The notes below the pieces were generated by a model. That model was not told the DNA's origin. It made no database searches and worked only from the letters and a program-made list of their open reading frames with translations. Positions 28,229 through 63,758 of a stretch of 64,000 bases of DNA are shown here, piece after piece. Location: IMG/VR virus record IMGVR_UViG_3300035698_031678, positions 1-64,000 of that record. One strand, given 5' to 3'. The position numbers and the translations under genes are program-made. How positions within the stretch are numbered: position 1 is the stretch's first letter; each line of letters starts with the position of its first letter. This DNA comes from a virus.

Positions 28229-29587
28229 ATGATAAAAAAGAATAAATTAAACTTCTTACTAGATGGTTGCGCTGGTTCTTCAGGCAAAGGTAAAATGGCT
28301 GCTTTTCTTGTTAAAAATAATAAGATAGATTACCTGGTAACTTCTAATACTGCCAATGCTTCTCACACTGTTGTAGAAAAAGGTAAAGAATATGTTTTTA
28401 AGGTACTTCCTAGTGGGGTTTTATATCACGAGAAAATAGAAAAAGTCTTTATTGCAGATGGTGCTGGATTTGTTGTTGCAGACCTTTTTAAGGAAATTGA
28501 AATGACTGGTATTCCTTTGGAAAAAATCTTCATATCACCAAGGGCAGCAATTATTACCCAAATAGACAAAGATTACGAAAACGGTCTTTGTGATTTACAA
28601 GGTGAATATTTTGAGACCCGACAAGATGGAACTCTTAGAACTGGAACTACTGCTAGTGGTTCTGGCGCTGTTCTTGCTAAAAAAGTACTAAGAATAAAAA
28701 ATCTTGTAACTGCTGGAGATTTGGAAGAACTCAAACCGTTTATAACGGATGTGGGTACTGAAATAATGAAAATAAATGGTAAAAAGACAGGTCTTTTTGA
28801 AATAGGGCAAGGTTACCCACTTTCTAACAACCATCCAATGTTTGCCCCATTTACTACTAGTAGAAATGTTACTGTGGCTGCTGCTCTAAATGATGCCATG
28901 CTAAGCCCTAGTATAGTTGGTAATGTTTTTATTAATTTTAGGACTTTTCCTATTAAGATACACAATTACAAGTATCTAGCTACAGAAGATAAGGAATACT
29001 CTTACCCAGCCAGTAGCGCAGCTTGGGTAGAAAAAAACCATTGCCCTCACCACACCATTGTGAGTGATGGCGTAACAATCACTGTTAATATCTTCAAAGA
29101 CACCTTTCTTTCTTACTACGAAAAAGACTTTGTTTTAAACGAAAGAATAGATTCTCATAGTGGCGAATTTTACCCAGATCAAGAAGAAATCACATGGGAA
29201 GAATTGAACAGCAGAATAGGTGATCCAGAGCCACCTATATTAGAATGTACAACTCTTACAAAACTACCTAGAAGAGTTGCAGAGTTTTCAAAAGAGAACC
29301 TAATAGATGCAGTTGTTCACAATGTATCACCTTTTGACACTTTTGTTAGCGTAAATTTCGCTAATTATGTAGATCCTGTACTGGAAGATTGCCATGGATC
29401 TTACAAGTGGTCAAATTCAACAAAATTCAACGATTGGTTAGTTGAAAACATAGTTAAAGTTCAAATGACCTTATTAAAAGATTATGACATCTTATTTGGA
29501 ATTGCGCTTATAGGTACAGGAGCTGAAACTGATTCTACTATTACTGTAGATGAGTATTCTACCACTAACAATACTATTACTGGATAA
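28229..29587 (+). CDS. purZ: PurZ-like N6-succino-2-amino-dAMP synthetase (adenylosuccinate synthetase family)
   Basis: GSSGKGK (Ser at the PurA Asp13 position), NASHT, GTTASG, PFTTSR, RTFPIKI, SGEFYPDQEEI, TTLTKLPRR (Leu at PurA Arg303), NFANY (replacing PurA TKLD). Confidence 0.85.
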   Translation: MIKKNKLNFLLDGCAGSSGKGKMAAFLVKNNKIDYLVTSNTANASHTVVEKGKEYVFKVLPSGVLYHEKIEKVFIADGAGFVVADLFKEIEMTGIPLEKIFISPRAAIITQIDKDYENGLCDLQGEYFETRQDGTLRTGTTASGSGAVLAKKVLRIKNLVTAGDLEELKPFITDVGTEIMKINGKKTGLFEIGQGYPLSNNHPMFAPFTTSRNVTVAAALNDAMLSPSIVGNVFINFRTFPIKIHNYKYLATEDKEYSYPASSAAWVEKNHCPHHTIVSDGVTITVNIFKDTFLSYYEKDFVLNERIDSHSGEFYPDQEEITWEELNSRIGDPEPPILECTTLTKLPRRVAEFSKENLIDAVVHNVSPFDTFVSVNFANYVDPVLEDCHGSYKWSNSTKFNDWLVENIVKVQMTLLKDYDILFGIALIGTGAETDSTITVDEYSTTNNTITG

Positions 29588-40007: not shown

Positions 40008-41567
40008 ATGACATATTTAAAAGCATTTGACATCAAACTAAACGGACTGTTTGATTCCACAAGAGATTATCTAAAAAAGAATTTTGGCAATAATTCTTTA
40101 AAGTTGGATTACTCTAGACCTGAAGGTCAAATACTTTTGGTAATAATGAATATAACTAAAATAGTTAAATTCTACCTTAAAGACGTATCTAAACAAACAA
40201 ACATTCTTACTGCAGACAGAGATCACACCGTTATGGGTCTAGCTGCATTAGTGGGTCATAATGCCTATAGAGGAGAAGGTAGTAAAGGTATAGTAAAATT
40301 TGTAAAGAAACAAGACGTAACGTCAGCTGGAACACCGCAAGAGGTTATTATAATACCAAATAATTTTAGATTGGTTTGCATGAATAACAATCTAGAATAT
40401 TACGTTAGTATAAATGGTGAATTTATTAAAACAAACCTAAACAATCAAACAAAATTTAGCATTATACAAGGTAAGAGAAACGTAAAAACCTTCCAGTCTA
40501 ATGGTGGTAATTTACAAACTTATAGTGTTCCTATTGCTGCTAACGATAACATAGATAACGAGCAAATCCAAGTGTATGTAAATGGCGTTAAATTTTCTAA
40601 GAACACCACTTTATACGACAACATGCTAAAAGAAAAAACAGTATTGGTTAAGACTGGAATATCTGGTGGTGTTGATGTAACATTTGGAAATGAGAGAAGT
40701 CATACTATACCAGGTTTGGGCAGCAAAATAGAAATAATATACTTTACTCACGAAGGCATACTAGGTAATGAAGCAGAACCATTATTTAGGTTCAAAGACT
40801 CTGCTTATGGGCTAGATGGTAGTATAGTAGACCTAAATTCTTTATTTTACGTACAGTATTTAGAAGGAGGTTTATTATTTGGTAGTAATCCTGAAGGTAT
40901 AGAACTTACTAGAATGTTAGCTCCAATCAATAATTCGCATTCTATAATTCATGACAAAAAGAGTCTTACATATGAACTTACAAAGATGAATATGTTTGGT
41001 GCTGTTATGGTAGAAGTAGAAGAAGAATTTCTAGTAGCTACTTTATTTCCAAGAATTTCAGAAATAATTTCTAATGACGAAGACTACTTTAACTTTGATA
41101 TCAATAAATTGCTAATAAATCCTCAAACAATAAGTAGGCTAAAAGACAAAATAGAGATAAAGCAAAGCAATTCAGTTGAGGTAGAGCTTATAAACCCTAA
41201 AATAGTCAAGTATGGAATAAATCTTGTTATAGAACTAAGAGAAAATCCCATTTTTGACAGCATTTCCTTTCTAAAAGATGTTAGAAAAGTAATATCCGAA
41301 TACAATTTATCGCTAACCAGAACTAATAAAGCCCACATTAGCGATATAATTAGAATTATTGATTCTATGGAAGAAGTTGATAGTTTAACTGGAGAATTTA
41401 TCGTAGGCGATGATTCCCACCTGGACAATCTAAAAAACATTAAATTGTTTAACAACCAACTAGCAGTAATGAGAGGTGGATTTGTTAATAGCTTAGGTCA
41501 AAACGTTTCTGACGAATTTAATGGTCAAACTCTTTCTTCTGTCAATATAGAATTGGTTATTCCTTAA
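40008..41567 (+). CDS. Baseplate wedge subunit (T4 gp6-like)
   Basis: TNILTA.R..TV.GLA.LVGH, IQG, VYVNG, VTFGN...IP..GS.I.I.Y..HEG..GN, GSNPE. Confidence 0.8.
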   Translation: MTYLKAFDIKLNGLFDSTRDYLKKNFGNNSLKLDYSRPEGQILLVIMNITKIVKFYLKDVSKQTNILTADRDHTVMGLAALVGHNAYRGEGSKGIVKFVKKQDVTSAGTPQEVIIIPNNFRLVCMNNNLEYYVSINGEFIKTNLNNQTKFSIIQGKRNVKTFQSNGGNLQTYSVPIAANDNIDNEQIQVYVNGVKFSKNTTLYDNMLKEKTVLVKTGISGGVDVTFGNERSHTIPGLGSKIEIIYFTHEGILGNEAEPLFRFKDSAYGLDGSIVDLNSLFYVQYLEGGLLFGSNPEGIELTRMLAPINNSHSIIHDKKSLTYELTKMNMFGAVMVEVEEEFLVATLFPRISEIISNDEDYFNFDINKLLINPQTISRLKDKIEIKQSNSVEVELINPKIVKYGINLVIELRENPIFDSISFLKDVRKVISEYNLSLTRTNKAHISDIIRIIDSMEEVDSLTGEFIVGDDSHLDNLKNIKLFNNQLAVMRGGFVNSLGQNVSDEFNGQTLSSVNIELVIP

Positions 41568-42009
41568 TCTGATTGATAAATTGTTCTATAAGTTTGAACG
41601 CTTTACTGATGCTACCATCTAGTAATCTAGACCAAAATTTAAAGCTGCCTTTTCTAACGAGGATTGCATAAGCTTCTTTTAACAAGTCCCAAGAATCTTC
41701 TTTTTTTAAAGGCTCAAAAAGATTAATTTTTTTATCCTTTACTTGGTTTGTTCGAATTTGGTCTTCAACACCTTCTAGTCTTAACCAAGATCCACCAGAA
41801 ACTTCTGTTATGGTTCTGCTAAAATTTTGATAAAATACCTTGTCACCTTGTAAGTGTGGCACTTTAACTCTTTCGAATCTACCAAGGAGTTCACCATCTT
41901 TAGTGTCCATTGATTTCAGTACCCCATCTTTGGTAATGTCGTAATTGCTTCCTTCGAATACAACCGTTTTGTGACTACCAGCCTTCTTTTTAACTTTTAC
42001 TATGCTCAT
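41557..42009 (-). CDS. Hypothetical protein
   Basis: 150-aa ORF downstream of the deaminase gene. Confidence 0.55.
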   Translation of the reverse strand: MSIVKVKKKAGSHKTVVFEGSNYDITKDGVLKSMDTKDGELLGRFERVKVPHLQGDKVFYQNFSRTITEVSGGSWLRLEGVEDQIRTNQVKDKKINLFEPLKKEDSWDLLKEAYAILVRKGSFKFWSRLLDGSISKAFKLIEQFINQIKE

Positions 42010-42012
42010 AAC

Positions 42013-42969
42013 TTAAAATTTAATGAATGAATAATTTAACGAATTAGATAATATTTCAGTTTTTTTGTTTATTAATATTTCAGACTTGTCTAGATAAGAA
42101 TATTCATTTTTTAAACTAGTTCCAAGAAATAATTTTCCATCTGTATTAAGTGTTATATTCACACCGTTAACCACCAGATTTTCCATAGCATTTATCATGC
42201 CTGATTCATCAAATATTTTGGTAGTTATATTAGAGTTTGGACACATTTCCAAACATACGTCATTATGACTTAATAATTCCATAGTCTGCATGTTTTTATA
42301 GGCTTGCACGCCATGACCTATTCTTTTTACCCTTAACTCATTAACTGCATATTCTATTTCTGAATTACCATCCAAAGGTAATTCTCCAGCATGTACCGTA
42401 AGACCAACTTTGTCAGAGTTGTGAAATATGAACATATATGCTTTCCTTAATTTTTCCATATCAGAAAGTCCGCAAGTAGCACCACTAGCATCAAAGCCTA
42501 CAATACCAAAATTTTCATACTTTACCGCTTTCCTGGCTAATATCAAAGATTCTTCCTCTGTAAAAGATTTGTCGGTTGAAATAATGATTCCAGCATGAAC
42601 ATTAAAGGCATCTTTTGCTCTGTTCAAACCTATACAAGCCTCTAGAATTATAGTATCTAAATCGTACAAGGCGTCATTATTTCTAAACATTGGGTTGAAC
42701 CTAATTTCTATGCCATCTATACCATCATCGTAAGCACTTTTAACTGCAGCATATATGCTCTCTCTTACACCCATTGGAGTACTTTGAATCATGTGAGTCA
42801 ATTTGTACTTATTGAGATACTCATTGTGATTTTTAACGCTAGTAGCAGAGAATACATTACGAAAATCACTGTAGTTTTTGAAACCTGTGTTTATTCCTTG
42901 TAACTTTGCTATTCTCCAAAGTTCTTCTGGGCTTACCATAGAACCTAAGTGAGCATGTAAATCAATCAT
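42013..42969 (-). CDS. add: Adenosine/adenylate deaminase family (amidohydrolase)
   Basis: DLHAHL, EIRFNP, VGFD, TVHAGE, RIGHG, EMCPNSN, LNTD. Confidence 0.9.
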   Translation of the reverse strand: MIDLHAHLGSMVSPEELWRIAKLQGINTGFKNYSDFRNVFSATSVKNHNEYLNKYKLTHMIQSTPMGVRESIYAAVKSAYDDGIDGIEIRFNPMFRNNDALYDLDTIILEACIGLNRAKDAFNVHAGIIISTDKSFTEEESLILARKAVKYENFGIVGFDASGATCGLSDMEKLRKAYMFIFHNSDKVGLTVHAGELPLDGNSEIEYAVNELRVKRIGHGVQAYKNMQTMELLSHNDVCLEMCPNSNITTKIFDESGMINAMENLVVNGVNITLNTDGKLFLGTSLKNEYSYLDKSEILINKKTEILSNSLNYSFIKF

Positions 42970-42982
42970 AGTTTTTTGTTTT

Positions 42983-43282
42983 TTAATTAAGTTCGAGAAC
43001 TTCGCTTTCCACTTCTTCTTTTAATTTAGATCTTTCACCTTTTCTAAACCTATGAGAAACAAAAGCTGGCTCTAGGGTCTTGTTTACCACACTCATGTAT
43101 CTTGGTTCGTTAGTAACGCCTTCTAATAAGATGCCCACTACAAATCCATGATTTATAATAGCTCTAACTATATACTTCTTGCCTTTCTCTATCCACTGTT
43201 GAAAGTCTCTAGTTATTTCATCTGCTTTATCAGCATCTATAGTAGCATCTATGCAAATTACTAAATCTCCTACTGCAAACAT
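42983..43282 (-). CDS. Hypothetical SH3/KOW-like protein
   Basis: VGDLVICID...GKKYIV pattern. Confidence 0.55.
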   Translation of the reverse strand: MFAVGDLVICIDATIDADKADEITRDFQQWIEKGKKYIVRAIINHGFVVGILLEGVTNEPRYMSVVNKTLEPAFVSHRFRKGERSKLKEEVESEVLELN

Positions 43283-43284
43283 AA

Positions 43285-43647
43285 TTATAAATTTTTTACT
43301 AACATTGAATATAAATCGATAAGAGCGGTTGTTTTAGCTCTATTCTTTAAGTTCTCTGGAGTGTTAAAAGACCCTTTGGTAATCTCTGAAATTCTCATAT
43401 CTCTAATTTCCCCAAGCATTGTTATAACTTTCCCTTGATATTCCAATAAGCTGAAATGAAGCTTGTCTTTGTTTTCTCTAGAAAAAATTGATTTCAAGGT
43501 AGAAATTACGTCTATTTCTGAATTTTTTAAAACTTCGTTGTAAGCTTCTTGGAAATTTAATTCATTGAGATTACTACCTGGTGATAGCCTTATAAGCATT
43601 TCGGAAATTTCTTTCTTTATAATTTCTAATTTATTATTATTGTCCAT
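43285..43647 (-). CDS. Hypothetical protein
   Basis: 120-aa helical ORF. Confidence 0.55.
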   Translation of the reverse strand: MDNNNKLEIIKKEISEMLIRLSPGSNLNELNFQEAYNEVLKNSEIDVISTLKSIFSRENKDKLHFSLLEYQGKVITMLGEIRDMRISEITKGSFNTPENLKNRAKTTALIDLYSMLVKNL

Positions 43648-43666
43648 GGGATAATTTTTGTAATAT

Positions 43667-43674
43667 GATAAATA
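43667..43674 (+). promoter_or_regulatory. Late-promoter-like motif GATAAATA
   Basis: About 23 nt upstream of ATG 43697. Confidence 0.55.
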
Positions 43675-43696
43675 AAAGAAATAAACATCAGTTTCA

Positions 43697-46285
43697 ATGT
43701 CTATAGTAACTGCAGAAGAATATTACAGAGATAGCATAGGTTTTCTAGAAGAGATTAGAGACATGCAAAAACAAGTTTTTGAAGAACTTGGTGGTGACTT
43801 GATGGATGGTATCGAAAGAATAGTAAATTCTCTAGATAAAATAAATGGTACTGGTGGTAAAGAAAAACAAGGTTCTTCTGGTTTTATGGATGGCATAGGA
43901 TCATCAGAAGAGATAGAATCAAGTGTTAAGGCTATAAACGCCTTAGATGTAGAAAAAGCGGAAACATTAATTAGAACTACAGAAAGCTTAAGCGGTTTTA
44001 AAGCTCCTTCAGCATCCTCTATAAAAAATGTAGGAGATTTTGCTGGTGGTATAGGTGATTTTCTTGAGACCTTAGAAAATATAAAAGTTGGTGAAGATGT
44101 TTTAGAACAATTTAGAATAATAACAGAAATAACATCTGGACTTAATTCTTTATCTAGGTCATTGGCGCTAAACGCTCCTTTTTTACTTATTGCCATGCCT
44201 ATCTCTAAACTATTACCTTTCTTGTTAGGAAGCATTTCAGATGCAATAGTAAGAGTAGATTCCAGGGTTGAGACAATGGACAGGTTTCCAACAACCATGA
44301 TGAAATTAGGCTTGGGTCTTACAATCTTTTCGGCTGGTTTAGCAGCTAGTGCATTGATAATAGGATTTACTGCTCTAAAAAGTCCTGAATCATTACTAAT
44401 GCTTGGAATTGTTATGGGCGCTACAGCATTAGCAGCATATGCTATAGGACTAAAAAGTACCGAAATTAATAAAGGTTCATTAACCATTGGTCTTATGGCA
44501 CTGGCACTACCAGTATTCGCTTTAGGAATGGTTACAGCAACTAACATGGTTCAAGAAGTTGGTTTTGAAAATGTGGCAGTTTTAGGTGGACTAATAGCCA
44601 TAACCGCACTAACATTTGGTGTTATTGGAAACTTTCTTCCTGTAATAGCTAAGGGTGCTTTGGCAGTTGGGATTATGGGATTAGGCTTATGGGCTTTTAC
44701 TTCTGGGCTTGATGGGATAGGAGAAATAGTTGAAGATTTAAACGTACTGTGGGCTTTGCCAACATTGATAGTTGGTTTAGGTGTCGTTTTTGCTGCTGCT
44801 GGAGCTGCATTACTTTTTATATTGCCAGGTGCAATTGCTATTGGTGCAATGGGTCTAGCTCTGATACCATTAGGACTAGGTCTAGAAGCGGTAATGAACA
44901 TACCAGATTTTGGTAAAGACAAAGCTGATAATTTTGCTAGAACACTAAAGTCAGTGGTTCAAGGCGTGTCAGAGTTGTCCTTAACAGATTTATTGACTTT
45001 ACCTCTTAAACTGCCAGTAATAGCTGGTATGGGTTTAGCTCTGATACCGTTTGCTAATGGAATCAATGCATTCCAGAAAAATGCTTCAGATTTCAGTCAA
45101 GCTGATGCAGACAATATGGAGTACGTTATTAGGAAAACTAGTCAAGCATTTGCGACAGCTGGTAGTACTGATGGTATGACTAAATTGTTTGGTTTTAACG
45201 TTGGTCAAAATGATGTAGAAAGAGGTATAGAGTCATCCATGATGATTGGTAAAAATCTTAATACTCTAGCAAAAGGTATATCAGCCTGGAGAGATGGTAA
45301 TTTCACAGAAGGAGACATAGAGAAAGTTGGTTCTAACATTACCAACGTTATGAACACTATACCAGCAGTGTTTGCAGCCATAGGATTGAGAGAGCGTGGT
45401 AGCGGTAATCAAATAAAAATTGGTGGTTTTAGTTTTGGCATGCCTTTTACCAAGACAGATACCGAATTGGGTATATCTTCTACAATGGAAATGGGTGAAA
45501 ACCTGGCTATGTTGCATAAAGGCATAATGGCTTGGAGGACTGGTGGTGATAATGATATAACGCCACACTTAGATCAAATAGTAGCAAACATTACCAACGT
45601 TCTTACTGCAATACCTCAAGCATTTGTAGCTGTTGGTAAGATGGAAAGTGAGAACGAACGATTTTTTGGTCTTATTGATGGTGATCTAGAAGAAGGTGTA
45701 GAATTGGTGTCTAGAATGACTAGACCATTAGAGCATTTAGCCACAATATTAACATCTTTTAATGCTCAAACGGATGCAAAGGTTATAGCAAATCATTTCA
45801 CAATACTAATGAAAGGTATTGTTACTAGTATTGACATGTTTACTGATAAAAGAACAGACAGGTTAGAAGACTTAATAGATCTTATGGAAGATCTTAATGA
45901 GGTTATAGAAGATCATTTTGAGGCTTTGAAAGATTTACCCCAAGACAGTATGGAGAAATTTGGTATGTATGCCGAATCTCTAAGAACATTGGGTGAGGTA
46001 GACATTAACAATGCTATTAAGGTTATGGATCTGCAAAATCAAAATGTAGAAAGAACAAAAACCATAAATGTTACCGAACTAAAAAGGGAAACAAGAGAGG
46101 TGGAAAGAGTTGTCAATGATGATGACATTAAAAAAGAGAATAACGAGATAAAAATTGAACTTAGAGAATTAAAAATGTTAATGCGTCAGGTGTTGTCAGC
46201 AATTTCTGGAAATAATTCTGGAGAAGACATATTGGATTACTTAAAATCTGGTACAATTAAAACTGAAGACGATCAAACTTTCTAG
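43697..46285 (+). CDS. Tape-measure-like protein with multiple hydrophobic helices
   Basis: 862 aa; A/G/L-rich hydrophobic centre; internal repeats (NITNV..IP..F.A.G twice); coiled-coil ends. Confidence 0.6.
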   Translation: MSIVTAEEYYRDSIGFLEEIRDMQKQVFEELGGDLMDGIERIVNSLDKINGTGGKEKQGSSGFMDGIGSSEEIESSVKAINALDVEKAETLIRTTESLSGFKAPSASSIKNVGDFAGGIGDFLETLENIKVGEDVLEQFRIITEITSGLNSLSRSLALNAPFLLIAMPISKLLPFLLGSISDAIVRVDSRVETMDRFPTTMMKLGLGLTIFSAGLAASALIIGFTALKSPESLLMLGIVMGATALAAYAIGLKSTEINKGSLTIGLMALALPVFALGMVTATNMVQEVGFENVAVLGGLIAITALTFGVIGNFLPVIAKGALAVGIMGLGLWAFTSGLDGIGEIVEDLNVLWALPTLIVGLGVVFAAAGAALLFILPGAIAIGAMGLALIPLGLGLEAVMNIPDFGKDKADNFARTLKSVVQGVSELSLTDLLTLPLKLPVIAGMGLALIPFANGINAFQKNASDFSQADADNMEYVIRKTSQAFATAGSTDGMTKLFGFNVGQNDVERGIESSMMIGKNLNTLAKGISAWRDGNFTEGDIEKVGSNITNVMNTIPAVFAAIGLRERGSGNQIKIGGFSFGMPFTKTDTELGISSTMEMGENLAMLHKGIMAWRTGGDNDITPHLDQIVANITNVLTAIPQAFVAVGKMESENERFFGLIDGDLEEGVELVSRMTRPLEHLATILTSFNAQTDAKVIANHFTILMKGIVTSIDMFTDKRTDRLEDLIDLMEDLNEVIEDHFEALKDLPQDSMEKFGMYAESLRTLGEVDINNAIKVMDLQNQNVERTKTINVTELKRETREVERVVNDDDIKKENNEIKIELRELKMLMRQVLSAISGNNSGEDILDYLKSGTIKTEDDQTF

Positions 46286-46286
46286 A

Positions 46287-46766
46287 ATGAGTATAAAACA
46301 AAATAAACCTAGTAAAAGTAGTAGATACAAACAAGGCTATTATAGAGTTAAAAATTTAGAGAAATACATTGGTAATCCACAGCAAGTAATATTCAGAAGT
46401 GGTTATGAACTTAAATTTTTTGGTCTTTTGGATTCTTCTTACGATGTCCTAAAGTGGGATGCTGAACCAGAAGAAATGAAAATAAAGTATTGGAATCCTA
46501 TAAAAAATAGGTATGCTCACTACTATCCAGACGTTTACTGTGAGAAATTGATAGATGGTAAACTAAAAAAGTTGCTGATCGAGATTAAACCCATGTCAAA
46601 AACTACCAAGCCTAGAAATAACAAAGGTACTACTGATAGAGCTTACCAAAGAAGGCTAGCTGAGTATTTGATAATTCAAAACAAAGCCATAGCTGCTGGA
46701 AAGTACGCTGCCATGAAAGGCATGGAATATATTTTCATAACAGAAATTACTATAGGGAAACTATAG
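46287..46766 (+). CDS. Head completion nuclease (T4 gp4-like, TnsA-type fold)
   Basis: QGYY...N.EKYIG, FRSGYE, W..E, HYYPD, IEIKP, NK..AA. Confidence 0.85.
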   Translation: MSIKQNKPSKSSRYKQGYYRVKNLEKYIGNPQQVIFRSGYELKFFGLLDSSYDVLKWDAEPEEMKIKYWNPIKNRYAHYYPDVYCEKLIDGKLKKLLIEIKPMSKTTKPRNNKGTTDRAYQRRLAEYLIIQNKAIAAGKYAAMKGMEYIFITEITIGKL

Positions 46767-46837: not shown

Positions 46838-47815
46838 ATGTCAATAAAAAGTAAATTATTCGAAAATCTGTTCAATCCAGAAACCACTAAGGGCTTTGTG
46901 TTACCAGATAGGATTAGAAGTGAATTCCCAGATGATAGAATAGAAGGTAACTATCTATTTCATGGTACTCCAGGTTCTGGAAAATCCGCTCTAGCCATAT
47001 CCCTAGGTAAGAATTATGACACATATTACTTTAGAGCTTCTATAGAAGGGACAATAGATGCCCTAAGAAAAGGTAGCGATCTATACGACTTTTGTTCTAC
47101 AACCTCTTTAATATCTGGTGGTAAAAGAAAAGTAGTAATTTTAGACGAACTTAATGGAGTTAGTAGACAATTCTTTGAAGCCTTAAAGGGGTTTATAGAC
47201 AAATTCAAAGAAATAGGAGTGGTTTTTATAGGTACTACTAACTACATTGAGGACGTTGAAACAGCTATTATTTCAAGAATGAAACTGTTGGATTTCAACT
47301 TGATGCCAAATGAAGAAGAACCTTACAGATTTGCTTTTGAAACAAGGATTAAAGCAATACTATCTAAAATAGATGTTAGCTATGATCAAGATGGTTTAGA
47401 CGCTTTGATCAACAGAAGCTATCCAGACTGGAGAGGTGTTTTACAAGATCTTCAATATCTACACAGAAGTGGTATTAAGAAGATAGACCCAGAGGTTATT
47501 AAAAAAGATGTTTATCAGTACAATGCGCTGTTTGATCTTATAGCAAAAGGTAACTTTAGAGACCCACAAAAATGGTTACCAGTAATAAGAGAATACCAAA
47601 ATCCATTAGCTGTTATACAAGGAATAGAGAGAGAATTGTTTGATTACCTTAACAACAACCATCCTTCCCTATCACCGAACTATGCGGACTACATAATAAT
47701 CATAGCAAAGTATGTAGATATGGTTAACAGGAGAGTTGAGCCTACAATTTGCCTTAGAGCATTGATGGCTGAACTAATGAAGAGAACTTTTATACTATCT
47801 AATAAACCGACTTAA
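46838..47815 (+). CDS. Clamp-loader large subunit (gp44/RFC-like AAA+)
   Basis: HGTPGSGKS, VILDE, TTNY, AIISR, YPDWR. Confidence 0.9.
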   Translation: MSIKSKLFENLFNPETTKGFVLPDRIRSEFPDDRIEGNYLFHGTPGSGKSALAISLGKNYDTYYFRASIEGTIDALRKGSDLYDFCSTTSLISGGKRKVVILDELNGVSRQFFEALKGFIDKFKEIGVVFIGTTNYIEDVETAIISRMKLLDFNLMPNEEEPYRFAFETRIKAILSKIDVSYDQDGLDALINRSYPDWRGVLQDLQYLHRSGIKKIDPEVIKKDVYQYNALFDLIAKGNFRDPQKWLPVIREYQNPLAVIQGIERELFDYLNNNHPSLSPNYADYIIIIAKYVDMVNRRVEPTICLRALMAELMKRTFILSNKPT

Positions 47816-63206: not shown

Positions 63207-63758
63207 TTAAGTATCTAGCCAAATTTTTTCTGATAAACTCTTTAAGTTGAATTTAGGGTCAGTTATTTCAACATCAAAATCCTTGAAATCCTTGAATTGC
63301 TCCCAATCTGTAGTCATTCTTTTCTCAACATTGTCAGCGTTTTCCCTTTGCGATAATCTTTCTTCTCTTACATTGTCGCTTATGTTAATATAGACAACTA
63401 TCAATTTACTATTCCTTAAATGCATTGGTAACCTGTTAACGCCAGCTGGAGTCATTATGAAAAGGTTAGATTTATTAAACTCTTCTTTAGTCGTTCCATA
63501 AACAAAACCGTTAGGAAAGTACTTGAATTGCATGAATTTATCTTCACTTATCATTTTTAACATCATGTTTTCTGTAACAAAATGATAGGTTTTTCCTCCT
63601 ACTTCACCAGTTCTTGGTGGTCTAGTAGTATAGCTTATTTCAGTAGTAATATCGTTCAGTTGACTTAGCAAGTTCTTAGCGTAATCTTTACCACTTCCAC
63701 CTTGCCCTACTAAGATTATCTTTTTGTCTCTTAGCCTATTATCTTGTTCCTTATTCAT
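63207..63758 (-). CDS. gmk: Guanylate kinase
   Basis: LVGQGGSGKD, SYTTRPPRTGEV.G..YHFV, YGT. Confidence 0.92.
   Translation of the reverse strand: MNKEQDNRLRDKKIILVGQGGSGKDYAKNLLSQLNDITTEISYTTRPPRTGEVGGKTYHFVTENMMLKMISEDKFMQFKYFPNGFVYGTTKEEFNKSNLFIMTPAGVNRLPMHLRNSKLIVVYINISDNVREERLSQRENADNVEKRMTTDWEQFKDFKDFDVEITDPKFNLKSLSEKIWLDT

Follow-up and report, generated by a model that had tools for sequence, protein, structure and literature searches.

Phages with 2-aminoadenine (Z) genomes need dZTP to be made and dATP to be excluded from their DNA. The accessory enzymes published for such phages are DatZ, MazZ/DUF550, DutZ, DUF5664 and DmtZ (Poubanne et al., NAR 2026, PMC12884076). As described in the text of that paper, dATP or dAMP removal in PurZ0 phages is performed by DutZ, DUF5664 and DmtZ, which are independent convergent enzymes; the published solutions, all from small phages, are phosphohydrolases (DatZ, DutZ and DUF5664) and a dAMP glycosidase/transferase (DmtZ). 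The word "deaminase" was not found in that text, and its supplementary tables might list such genes. A literature search, with supplementary gene tables outside its scope, found no paper linking PurZ, Z-genomes or 2-aminoadenine with a deaminase or a dAMP/dATP deaminase. In the adenosine deaminase (ADA) fold, KomA of the Kongming defence system is described in the text of PMC12273558 as a 326-aa dAMP/AMP deaminase, so (d)AMP-deaminating chemistry has precedent. Here we report a gene of the adenosine/AMP deaminase superfamily in IMG/VR record IMGVR_UViG_3300035698_031678, a 129,295-bp phage genome with direct terminal repeats, rated 100% complete, whose initial 64 kb (positions 1 to 64,000) formed the window that was analysed. 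The gene encodes an intact but atypical enzyme, it lies in a phage with PurZ, and deaminase-family genes of three unrelated types accompany PurZ in large phages.

The gene and its motifs were located as follows.
42013..42969, minus strand: adenosine/AMP-deaminase-fold gene ("type i"), an open reading frame (ORF) of 318 aa with an ATG start
42940-42957, minus strand: HAHLGS, residues 5-10, with two zinc-binding His (H5, H7) and Gly9 at the position of the Asp in canonical HxHLDG
42679-42702, minus strand: RFNPMFRN, the subfamily signature loop after the E-x-R strand in alignments of relatives, with a nearly invariant Arg96
42382-42393, minus strand: HAGE, residues 193-196, with the third zinc His (H193) and the catalytic Glu (E196)
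42310-42318, minus strand: GHG, residues 218-220, with the catalytic His219
42136-42147, minus strand: NTDG, residues 275-278, with the zinc-binding Asp277 and Gly278 at the position of the second Asp in canonical TDDP

The protein matched Pfam A_deaminase (PF00962) over residues 3-316 with E 1.5e-39 and 136.5 bits (cut-off 27). This was the sole family listed at E <=1, and the AMP deaminase (AMPD) profile PF19326 gave no match. As a first-pass annotation of this DNA had stated, the metal ligands in HAH, HAGE, GHG and NTD were all present in the translation; H5, H7, H193, E196, H219 and D277 were invariant or nearly so across 127 relatives (H5, H7 and His219 invariant, H193 and E196 nearly invariant there and invariant in a separate comparison). 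The same annotation had read HLGS in place of HLDG and NTDG in place of NTDD. Both Asp-to-Gly differences are real, because the canonical enzymes (Salmonella Add, Vibrio Add, mouse ADA and nine canonical relatives) aligned with HxHLDG and NTDDP at these places.

An AlphaFold2 model built from the 127 relatives had a mean predicted local distance difference test (pLDDT) score of 96.1 and a predicted template-modelling (pTM) score of 0.93. In a Foldseek comparison with solved structures, mouse ADA, a (beta/alpha)8 barrel, was the top match (template-modelling (TM) score 0.88, probability 1.00), followed by Pseudomonas adenine deaminase Pa0148 (0.84) and Plasmodium ADA (0.84-0.86), with ADAL1/MAPDA (0.79-0.82) and Cad1 (about 0.74-0.82) lower. 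A sequence search of solved structures ranked them in the same order: 6ii7 (4e-18), 3ou8 (7e-16) and mouse ADA (about 1e-12), then more weakly MAPDA 6ijm (1.1e-9), ADAL1 8qch (2.6e-6) and Cad1 (5e-6). The phage protein thus shared with canonical ADA (Add/ADA1, EC 3.5.4.4; mouse 1a4l/1add, Plasmodium 6ii7, Salmonella 6n9m) the TIM-barrel fold (TM 0.84-0.88), the zinc ligands and the catalytic Glu and His, and canonical ADA was its top sequence match among solved structures (4e-18 to 1e-12). It differed in the change of Asp/Asp to Gly/Gly, in its own signature (RFNPxxRN, IQSSP and LW) and in falling under the cut-off of the NCBIfam adenosine-deaminase equivalog TIGR01430 (151.5 against 216.55 bits). 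The adenine deaminases of the ADA family (Pa0148, 3ou8; Arthrobacter, 3rys) were similarly close (E 7e-16, TM 0.84-0.85) and also lack the Asp after HxH, but they read HLHLEG and keep the DD pair, whereas the phage protein has Gly at both places. In an Atlas search the protein found "adenosine deaminase" clusters alone, and a nucleotide search of 41000-44000 against deposited phages gave no match. A PHROGs "tail protein" match was at chance level (E 0.003) and was discarded. These results confirmed that the gene encodes an intact but atypical member of the superfamily, and we infer that its product is an active zinc-dependent purine C6-aminohydrolase from a distinct, uncharacterised branch.

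The same genome carried genes expected of a Z programme:
28229..29587, plus strand: PurZ-type (2-amino)adenylosuccinate synthetase, long form, 452 aa, with GSSGKG; Pfam PF00709 Adenylsucc_synt, E 6e-20
63207..63758, minus strand: guanylate kinase homologue, a candidate dZMP/dGMP kinase; PF00625, E 3.7e-21 at 63246-63725
genome positions 99412-100812: adenylosuccinate lyase PurB, from the Pfam sweep

The best solved relatives of the phage PurZ were the phiVC8 PurZ structures 6fm1/6fko/6tnh (about 1e-23), with archaeal short PurA (1.6e-17), S-2L PurZ (8e-16) and E. coli PurA (4e-7) below them. Its P-loop Ser17 (GSSGKG), which replaces the Asp of PurA, was invariant in six relatives; according to the text of Poubanne et al. 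(PMC12884076), Ser occupies this position in 147/147 phage PurZ and Asp in 99% of PurA. Among cultured phages, Flavobacterium phage MaF61 had the closest PurZ (56% identity), and the large terminase gene follows PurZ in both phages. The Pfam sweep, which covered 141 of the 142 ORFs called on the complete genome, also detected both ribonucleotide reductase subunits, a family-B polymerase, a T4-type portal and capsid, and two HD proteins, and found none of the dUTPase, MazG, DUF550 and nucleoside 2-deoxyribosyltransferase (NDT) families; separate searches of the genome for MazG and dUTPase were likewise negative. No gene of DutZ, DUF5664 or DmtZ type was found in this genome. With phiVC8 DatZ as protein query there was no match either, and the same search was positive in all six complete small PurZ phages. 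Elsewhere in the sweep, one of 31 window ORFs contained a NUDIX domain (E 3.4e-16), possibly a virion-borne nucleotide pyrophosphatase, and the ORFs in 1-60389 included a chaperonin Cpn60 (E 1.3e-29) and two Cpn10-type proteins (E 3.8e-17).

IMG/VR was scanned with an alignment of six long-form PurZ proteins, which gave 56 loci; 50 records were then searched for PF00962, the six left aside being contigs of 4-7 kb. A PF00962 gene was present in 10 of the 50 PurZ-bearing records, all 10 from large phages. Eight of the 28 long-form PurZ records had one, including all seven that were at least 46% complete (G001, G002, G012, G013, G017, G026 and G029) and the fragment G010 (28% complete); it was also present in G030 (complete, 371 kb, PurZ 30% identical) and in the 19-kb fragment G031. 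Among the 20 short-PurZ records, seven of them at least 90% complete, there was none. With this phage included, a deaminase-family gene was present in all nine of the large PurZ records that were reasonably complete, MaF61 and G033 being counter-examples. When 18 PurZ records were compared, the distribution of DatZ and the deaminase was complementary: DatZ occurred in all six complete small genomes and in none of the 12 large ones, the deaminase in none of the six and in 10 of the 12.

These deaminase genes were not of one kind. Type i was found in this phage, G001, G002, G010 and G031, with a variant in G017. Type ii, with HRH[FM][GA]GSIS and TDDP, was found in PurZ phages of 170-341 kb (G012, G026, G029 and G013; loci L173, L172, L169 and L171), and in G013 a TAA stop cuts off the N-terminal part. 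The G030 deaminase was of the canonical HQHVDGS type. Ten deaminase genes of three unrelated types argue for repeated acquisition. In G017, PurB, a 282-aa gene, the deaminase and a 276-aa gene follow one another on a single strand, and the two genes flanking the deaminase had no solved relative. PurZ and the deaminase are 2 kb apart in G031. The G031 PurZ homologue itself (L218:13278-15650, minus strand) is a 790-aa ORF whose residues about 334-544 match LAGLIDADG endonucleases (6x1j, E 7e-10; I-SceI), an intein-like or in-frame endonuclease insertion.

In the reverse direction, the type-i pattern [LIH]E[LIF]RFNPxxR occurred in just seven IMG/VR contigs, or nine records with this phage and G017. 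PurZ was encoded on the contig itself in six of the nine; the remaining three were fragments 5-28% complete. Among deposited phages, 7 of 50,697 records matched, the same seven with a type-i or a type-ii query, and by name none was a known Z phage. These numbers bear on a rival explanation, an ordinary purine-salvage auxiliary gene, i.e. a (deoxy)adenosine deaminase from a host-like bacterium that salvages nucleosides out of broken-down host nucleic acid, with no particular connection to Z-DNA. Such a gene accords poorly with the near absence of the family from deposited phages, with the presence of deaminases of three unrelated types in all eight large PurZ-phage records at least 46% complete, and with a type-i motif almost limited in IMG/VR to PurZ contigs. 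It agrees with MaF61, which has PurZ yet manages without a deaminase. The association between PurZ and deaminase genes in large phages is strong, though only partly controlled for genome size and lineage. Scanning for related phages with the terminase as sole query gave one distant contig, and a portal-based control set of PurZ-less relatives (29 loci) was nearly all on contigs of 2-26 kb and useless as a control.

The explanation that we prefer, and hold to be slightly better than an even bet, is that the deaminase diverts adenine compounds to inosine compounds as an accessory of the PurZ-based Z-DNA programme of large phages. In this programme the enzyme would stand beside PurZ, PurB, guanylate kinase and ribonucleotide reductase. 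It would convert adenine (deoxy)nucleotides or (deoxy)nucleosides irreversibly to inosine compounds; precursors of dATP, the competitor of dZTP, would be removed by deamination, and purines would be pushed into the IMP to XMP to GMP branch, from which PurZ would draw its dGMP. The proposed role is that of DatZ, the HD-type dATP triphosphohydrolase of S-2L, phiVC8 and other small PurZ phages, namely keeping adenine out of phage DNA, but the two enzymes are of unrelated fold and one acts by phosphohydrolysis, the other by deamination. Beside DutZ, DUF5664 and DmtZ, which belong to different families, the deaminase would add one more convergent solution. Depletion of dATP in favour of dZTP had been proposed in the first-pass annotation; it fits the deaminase genes of large DatZ-less PurZ phages, and the link to Z-DNA itself is one that we infer.

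To place the phage enzyme among its cellular relatives, homologues were collected. A word-indexed protein search gave 2182 at E <=1e-5 and an exhaustive search 63 cluster representatives at E <=1e-30; the closest (P0002-P0017) were 45-48% identical. In the best 120 relatives, and in a 127-row alignment, HxHLG[SGA], LW, IQSSP, E-x-RFNPxxRN and NTDG were conserved jointly. The pattern E[IL]RFNP[ML][LFK]RN, scanned in one genome per prokaryotic species, matched at least 600 stretches, and 599 of the 600 matches listed were confirmed relatives, i.e. at least 599 cellular species. The Asp-to-Gly changes are thus subfamily-wide in cells and no mark of phage invention: the first-pass description of an atypical phage deaminase holds in that the enzyme is atypical, intact and located in a PurZ phage, but the substitutions are not specific to phages.

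Neighbours were called and clustered at 80 of these cellular loci (L023-L102), which came from Chloroflexota, Nitrososphaerota, Micrarchaeota, candidate phyla radiation (CPR) bacteria, Actinomycetota, Myxococcaceae and others. At 16 of the 80, IMP dehydrogenase (IMPDH) and/or GMP synthase (GuaA) adjoined the deaminase or lay within about 600 nt, almost always on the same strand and in gene orders that differed among lineages. Nitrososphaerota had IMPDH-GuaA-deaminase; two CPR genomes and two gammaproteobacterial metagenome-assembled genomes (MAGs) had deaminase-IMPDH-(x)-GuaA; and a Micrarchaeota MAG had IMPDH-deaminase, with GuaA on the opposite strand. The deaminase of a CPR locus follows a nucleoside 2-deoxyribosyltransferase-like gene, and a gene of purine nucleoside phosphorylase (PNP) type lies upstream of it in a gammaproteobacterial MAG. 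The IMPDH-GuaA-deaminase cluster would be an uncharacterised A-to-G purine interconversion operon, and the subfamily would feed the IMP-to-GMP branch, with entry at the base, nucleoside or nucleotide level all possible. A reading of the cellular homologues as aminodeoxyfutalosine deaminases was considered as well. IMPDH was found in only one of 16 phage records (G030), apart from the G030 deaminase; the cellular operon is therefore not copied in these phages.

In a tree of 152 deaminase rows, the phage enzyme fell in a 16-row clade made up exclusively of metagenome proteins (Shimodaira-Hasegawa-like approximate likelihood ratio test (SH-aLRT) support 96), nested in a 45-row clade (98) with five other phage type-i rows. 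Two Bacteroidota MAG proteins were placed near the base of the larger clade. The sister group included the gammaproteobacterial MAG locus with deaminase-IMPDH-GuaA, and one of the cellular loci linked to IMPDH/GuaA (L024) was near the phage clade. The phage rows G004, G017 and G053 were placed elsewhere on long branches. The tree is compatible with more than one phage origin. Recruitment from purine salvage gains something from these data, since it would accord with a subfamily widespread in cells (at least 599 relatives), with PNP-type phosphorylase and NDT-like genes near cellular homologues, with Bacteroidota proteins at the base of the phage clade and with nucleoside deaminases as the top fold matches. 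Weighed with the near-restriction to PurZ phages, a salvage gene with no Z-DNA tie is nevertheless unlikely.

The first-pass annotation had taken HLGS as a possible sign of a phosphorylated substrate. AMP-acting ADA-fold enzymes, as the text of Zhou, Schildkraut, Cheng et al. (PMC12273558) describes, hold the phosphate by polar or charged residues at three places: the loop after strand beta1, the helix-helix loop, and the end of the E-x-R strand with the loop that follows. The MAPDA contacts given there are N17 (in the post-beta1 loop), H65, T97, T98 and K100, and nucleoside-specific relatives have hydrophobic residues at those places (PMC12273558). In the phage deaminase S10, T58, Q62, S63, N92, R96 and N97 are conserved polar or basic residues in stretches that match the phosphate-contact elements, as mapped by sequence only. 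The MAPDA motif is HAHLNGS, from which we take N17 to be the Asp-equivalent position. By sequence alignment alone, the RFNPMFRN loop is the element in which T97, T98 and K100 of MAPDA contact phosphate (PMC12273558).

ADAL1/MAPDA and KomA resemble the phage protein in the ADA fold, in similar size and in lacking, as here, the Asp after HxH; they act on 5'-monophosphates, whose phosphate is contacted by polar or basic residues that follow beta1 and the E-x-R strand (text of PMC12273558). ADAL1/MAPDA are more distant than ADA both by sequence (1e-9 and 2.6e-6) and by fold (TM 0.79-0.82 against 0.88), and the residues at the contact places differ: G-S and N-P-M-x-R in the phage, N-G-S and T-T-P-K in MAPDA. 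The phage locus has no defence partners. From the Cad1 work, in the text of PMC11645235, no transferable rule for phosphate recognition emerged.

The type-ii enzymes gave a further comparison. Their best matches were ordinary adenosine deaminases of bacteria and mammals (3e-19 to 4e-18), and they formed a clade of 38 proteins with a sharp gap to the next relatives (E 1e-58 against 1e-24). Among members with an HxH start, the position of the canonical Asp was Gly in 24 of 26, Cys in one and Ser in one, against Asp in eight and Glu in one of the next nine relatives (canonical Add reads HRHLDG). The loop stretch [SDHCR]-[FL]-S-x-x-K-[YF] was found in all 36 members having this region. Its Lys, as in E-I-S-F-S-x-x-K-Y, was invariant, and the canonical counterpart of the stretch is R-F-[SA]-P-x-F-[MH]. 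In type i the post-HxH position is likewise Gly, and the loop carries a nearly invariant Arg, one position beyond that of the type-ii Lys. Loss of the Asp together with a basic loop residue in both phage lineages is suggestive and may hint at a nucleotide substrate.

The phosphorylated-substrate claim of the first-pass annotation thus gained from the N17 contact of MAPDA (text of PMC12273558) and from the two phage lineages that lack the Asp and have a basic loop residue, evidence that is only suggestive. It lost from the occurrence of the motif in hundreds of cellular homologues, from nearest relatives that are nucleoside or base deaminases, and from a distant DatZ-like HD protein in the phage, which would release a nucleoside. 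We put a 5'-phosphorylated substrate, (d)AMP with di- or triphosphates less likely, a little short of an even chance; the cellular IMPDH-GuaA neighbourhood fits direct production of IMP as well. A (deoxy)adenosine substrate, for example the product of the phage DatZ-like HD enzyme, is tentatively given a somewhat smaller chance: phosphorylase- and deoxyribosyltransferase-like cellular neighbours favour it, as does the HD_3 protein described below, which is predicted to yield deoxyadenosine. A substrate of another class is improbable.

A rival role would be action on Z compounds. The enzyme might convert dZ, dZMP or dZTP to guanine forms, by which the Z pool would be trimmed or recycled, or Z recovered when phage DNA is broken down. 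Co-occurrence with PurZ suits any Z-related role, canonical ADA accepts 2,6-diaminopurine nucleosides, and the change at the purine-contacting position (Gly for the second Asp of TDD) might go with another purine. Yet hundreds of cellular homologues, which have no Z, share the NTDG and HLG motifs, types ii and iii keep TDDP, and the reaction would reverse what PurZ achieves; recycling of dZ to dG, raised in the first-pass annotation, gained no support and we hold it very unlikely.

A more specific form of the preferred explanation was also considered, in which a (d)AMP deaminase opens an A-to-Z route. Here dAMP from host DNA would become dIMP, host IMP dehydrogenase and GMP synthase would convert this to dGMP, and the phage PurZ, PurB and guanylate kinase would carry dGMP to dZ nucleotides. 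Deaminase-family enzymes would then be one more independently evolved means of adenine exclusion, taken up three times or more by large phages, and Asp loss with gain of a basic loop residue would be the convergent mark of a change from nucleoside to nucleotide substrates. We regard this version as doubtful.

The two HD proteins lie in the genome beyond the window.
genome 120929-121852 (L019:17830-18753), plus strand: HD_3/YfbR-like phosphohydrolase, 307 aa; 2gz4, 8e-5
genome 89406-89870 (L014:1399-1863), plus strand: (p)ppApp-hydrolase-like HD protein, 154 aa; 7smg, 1.2e-16
The HD_3 protein, with relatives in G001 and MaF61, may be a candidate distant DatZ-like dATPase or deoxynucleotidase, and the deaminase may act after or beside such an enzyme rather than replace it. 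A DatZ identity for the weak HD match at 89406-89870 was rejected, this protein being a (p)ppApp-hydrolase relative (7smg); it would be a phage-encoded small alarmone hydrolase.

Several points weigh against the deaminase as an adenine-excluding accessory of the Z programme. A profile of DatZ homologues aligned with the core of the HD_3 protein (92% probability over 50 columns), so a separate dATP-removing enzyme may exist. The phage polymerase is of family B, not DpoZ, and the presence of Z in the DNA of this group is so far a prediction. MaF61, whose genome is complete and whose PurZ is the nearest cultured relative, has no deaminase-family gene, nor has G033 (250 kb, 91% complete). The association of deaminase genes with PurZ is confounded with genome size and lineage. 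At 64 of the 80 cellular loci there was no IMPDH or GuaA near the deaminase; these loci, mostly from Chloroflexota, had uninformative lineage-specific neighbours (acyl-CoA dehydrogenase, lipoyl synthase, E2). The nearest sequences and folds are nucleoside or adenine deaminases, not the nucleotide deaminases ADAL/MAPDA, AMPD and Cad1. Deamination of dAMP or dATP gives dIMP or dITP, which is potentially mutagenic, and canonical ADA deaminates 2,6-diaminopurine nucleosides, which would run counter to Z synthesis.

The immediate neighbourhood of the gene was a tight block of four minus-strand genes, the deaminase among them, with a plus-strand gene on either side.
41557..42009, minus strand: 150-aa ORF of no assigned function, 3 nt downstream of the deaminase; no Pfam match
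42983..43647, minus strand: a pair of short ORFs, 99 and 120 aa, immediately upstream of the deaminase, with intervals of 13 and 2 nt and no Pfam match
Pfam and Atlas searches with the 150-aa ORF gave no usable match. No terminator-like site was found within 41300-43900, and a promoter scan found 9 sites where 10.6 would be expected by chance. Further along, a TnsA-like endonuclease N-terminal domain (46287-46766, plus strand; PF08722, E 3.4e-10) stands directly before a clamp-loader gene (46838-47815).

This neighbourhood also bears on a counter-defence role, in which the enzyme would destroy adenine-based immune signals (cyclic oligoadenylates etc.) or shift ATP/dATP levels. ADA-fold ATP and dAMP deaminases do act in defence, as the texts on Cad1 (PMC11645235) and KomA (PMC12273558) describe, and the PADLOC CARF_ADA model matched the phage protein with E 2e-22, in its deaminase part alone (profile positions 261-555). 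Cad1 and RADAR RdrB, however, have a sensor fusion or a partner (CARF, RdrA ATPase), whereas the phage deaminase stands alone: the 318-aa protein has no sensor domain, and neither CARF nor an RdrA ATPase partner was seen. Similarity to Cad1 was weak (E 5e-6 against 4e-18 for ADA), the deaminase neighbours gave no indication of defence-related content in Pfam or Atlas, and the role would leave the PurZ link unexplained. Destruction of immune signals, suggested in the first-pass annotation, gained no support, and we hold a counter-defence role to be very unlikely.

If deaminases do perform adenine exclusion in large and jumbo phages, they would be another convergent module of the Z pathway. The uncharacterised long-form PurZ clade, from phages of 110-370 kb, would then be a candidate reservoir of Z-DNA, and the enzyme would be a compact one for engineering Z-substituted DNA in cells. 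A large cellular subfamily that is annotated merely as "adenosine deaminase" would gain a testable role in A-to-G interconversion.

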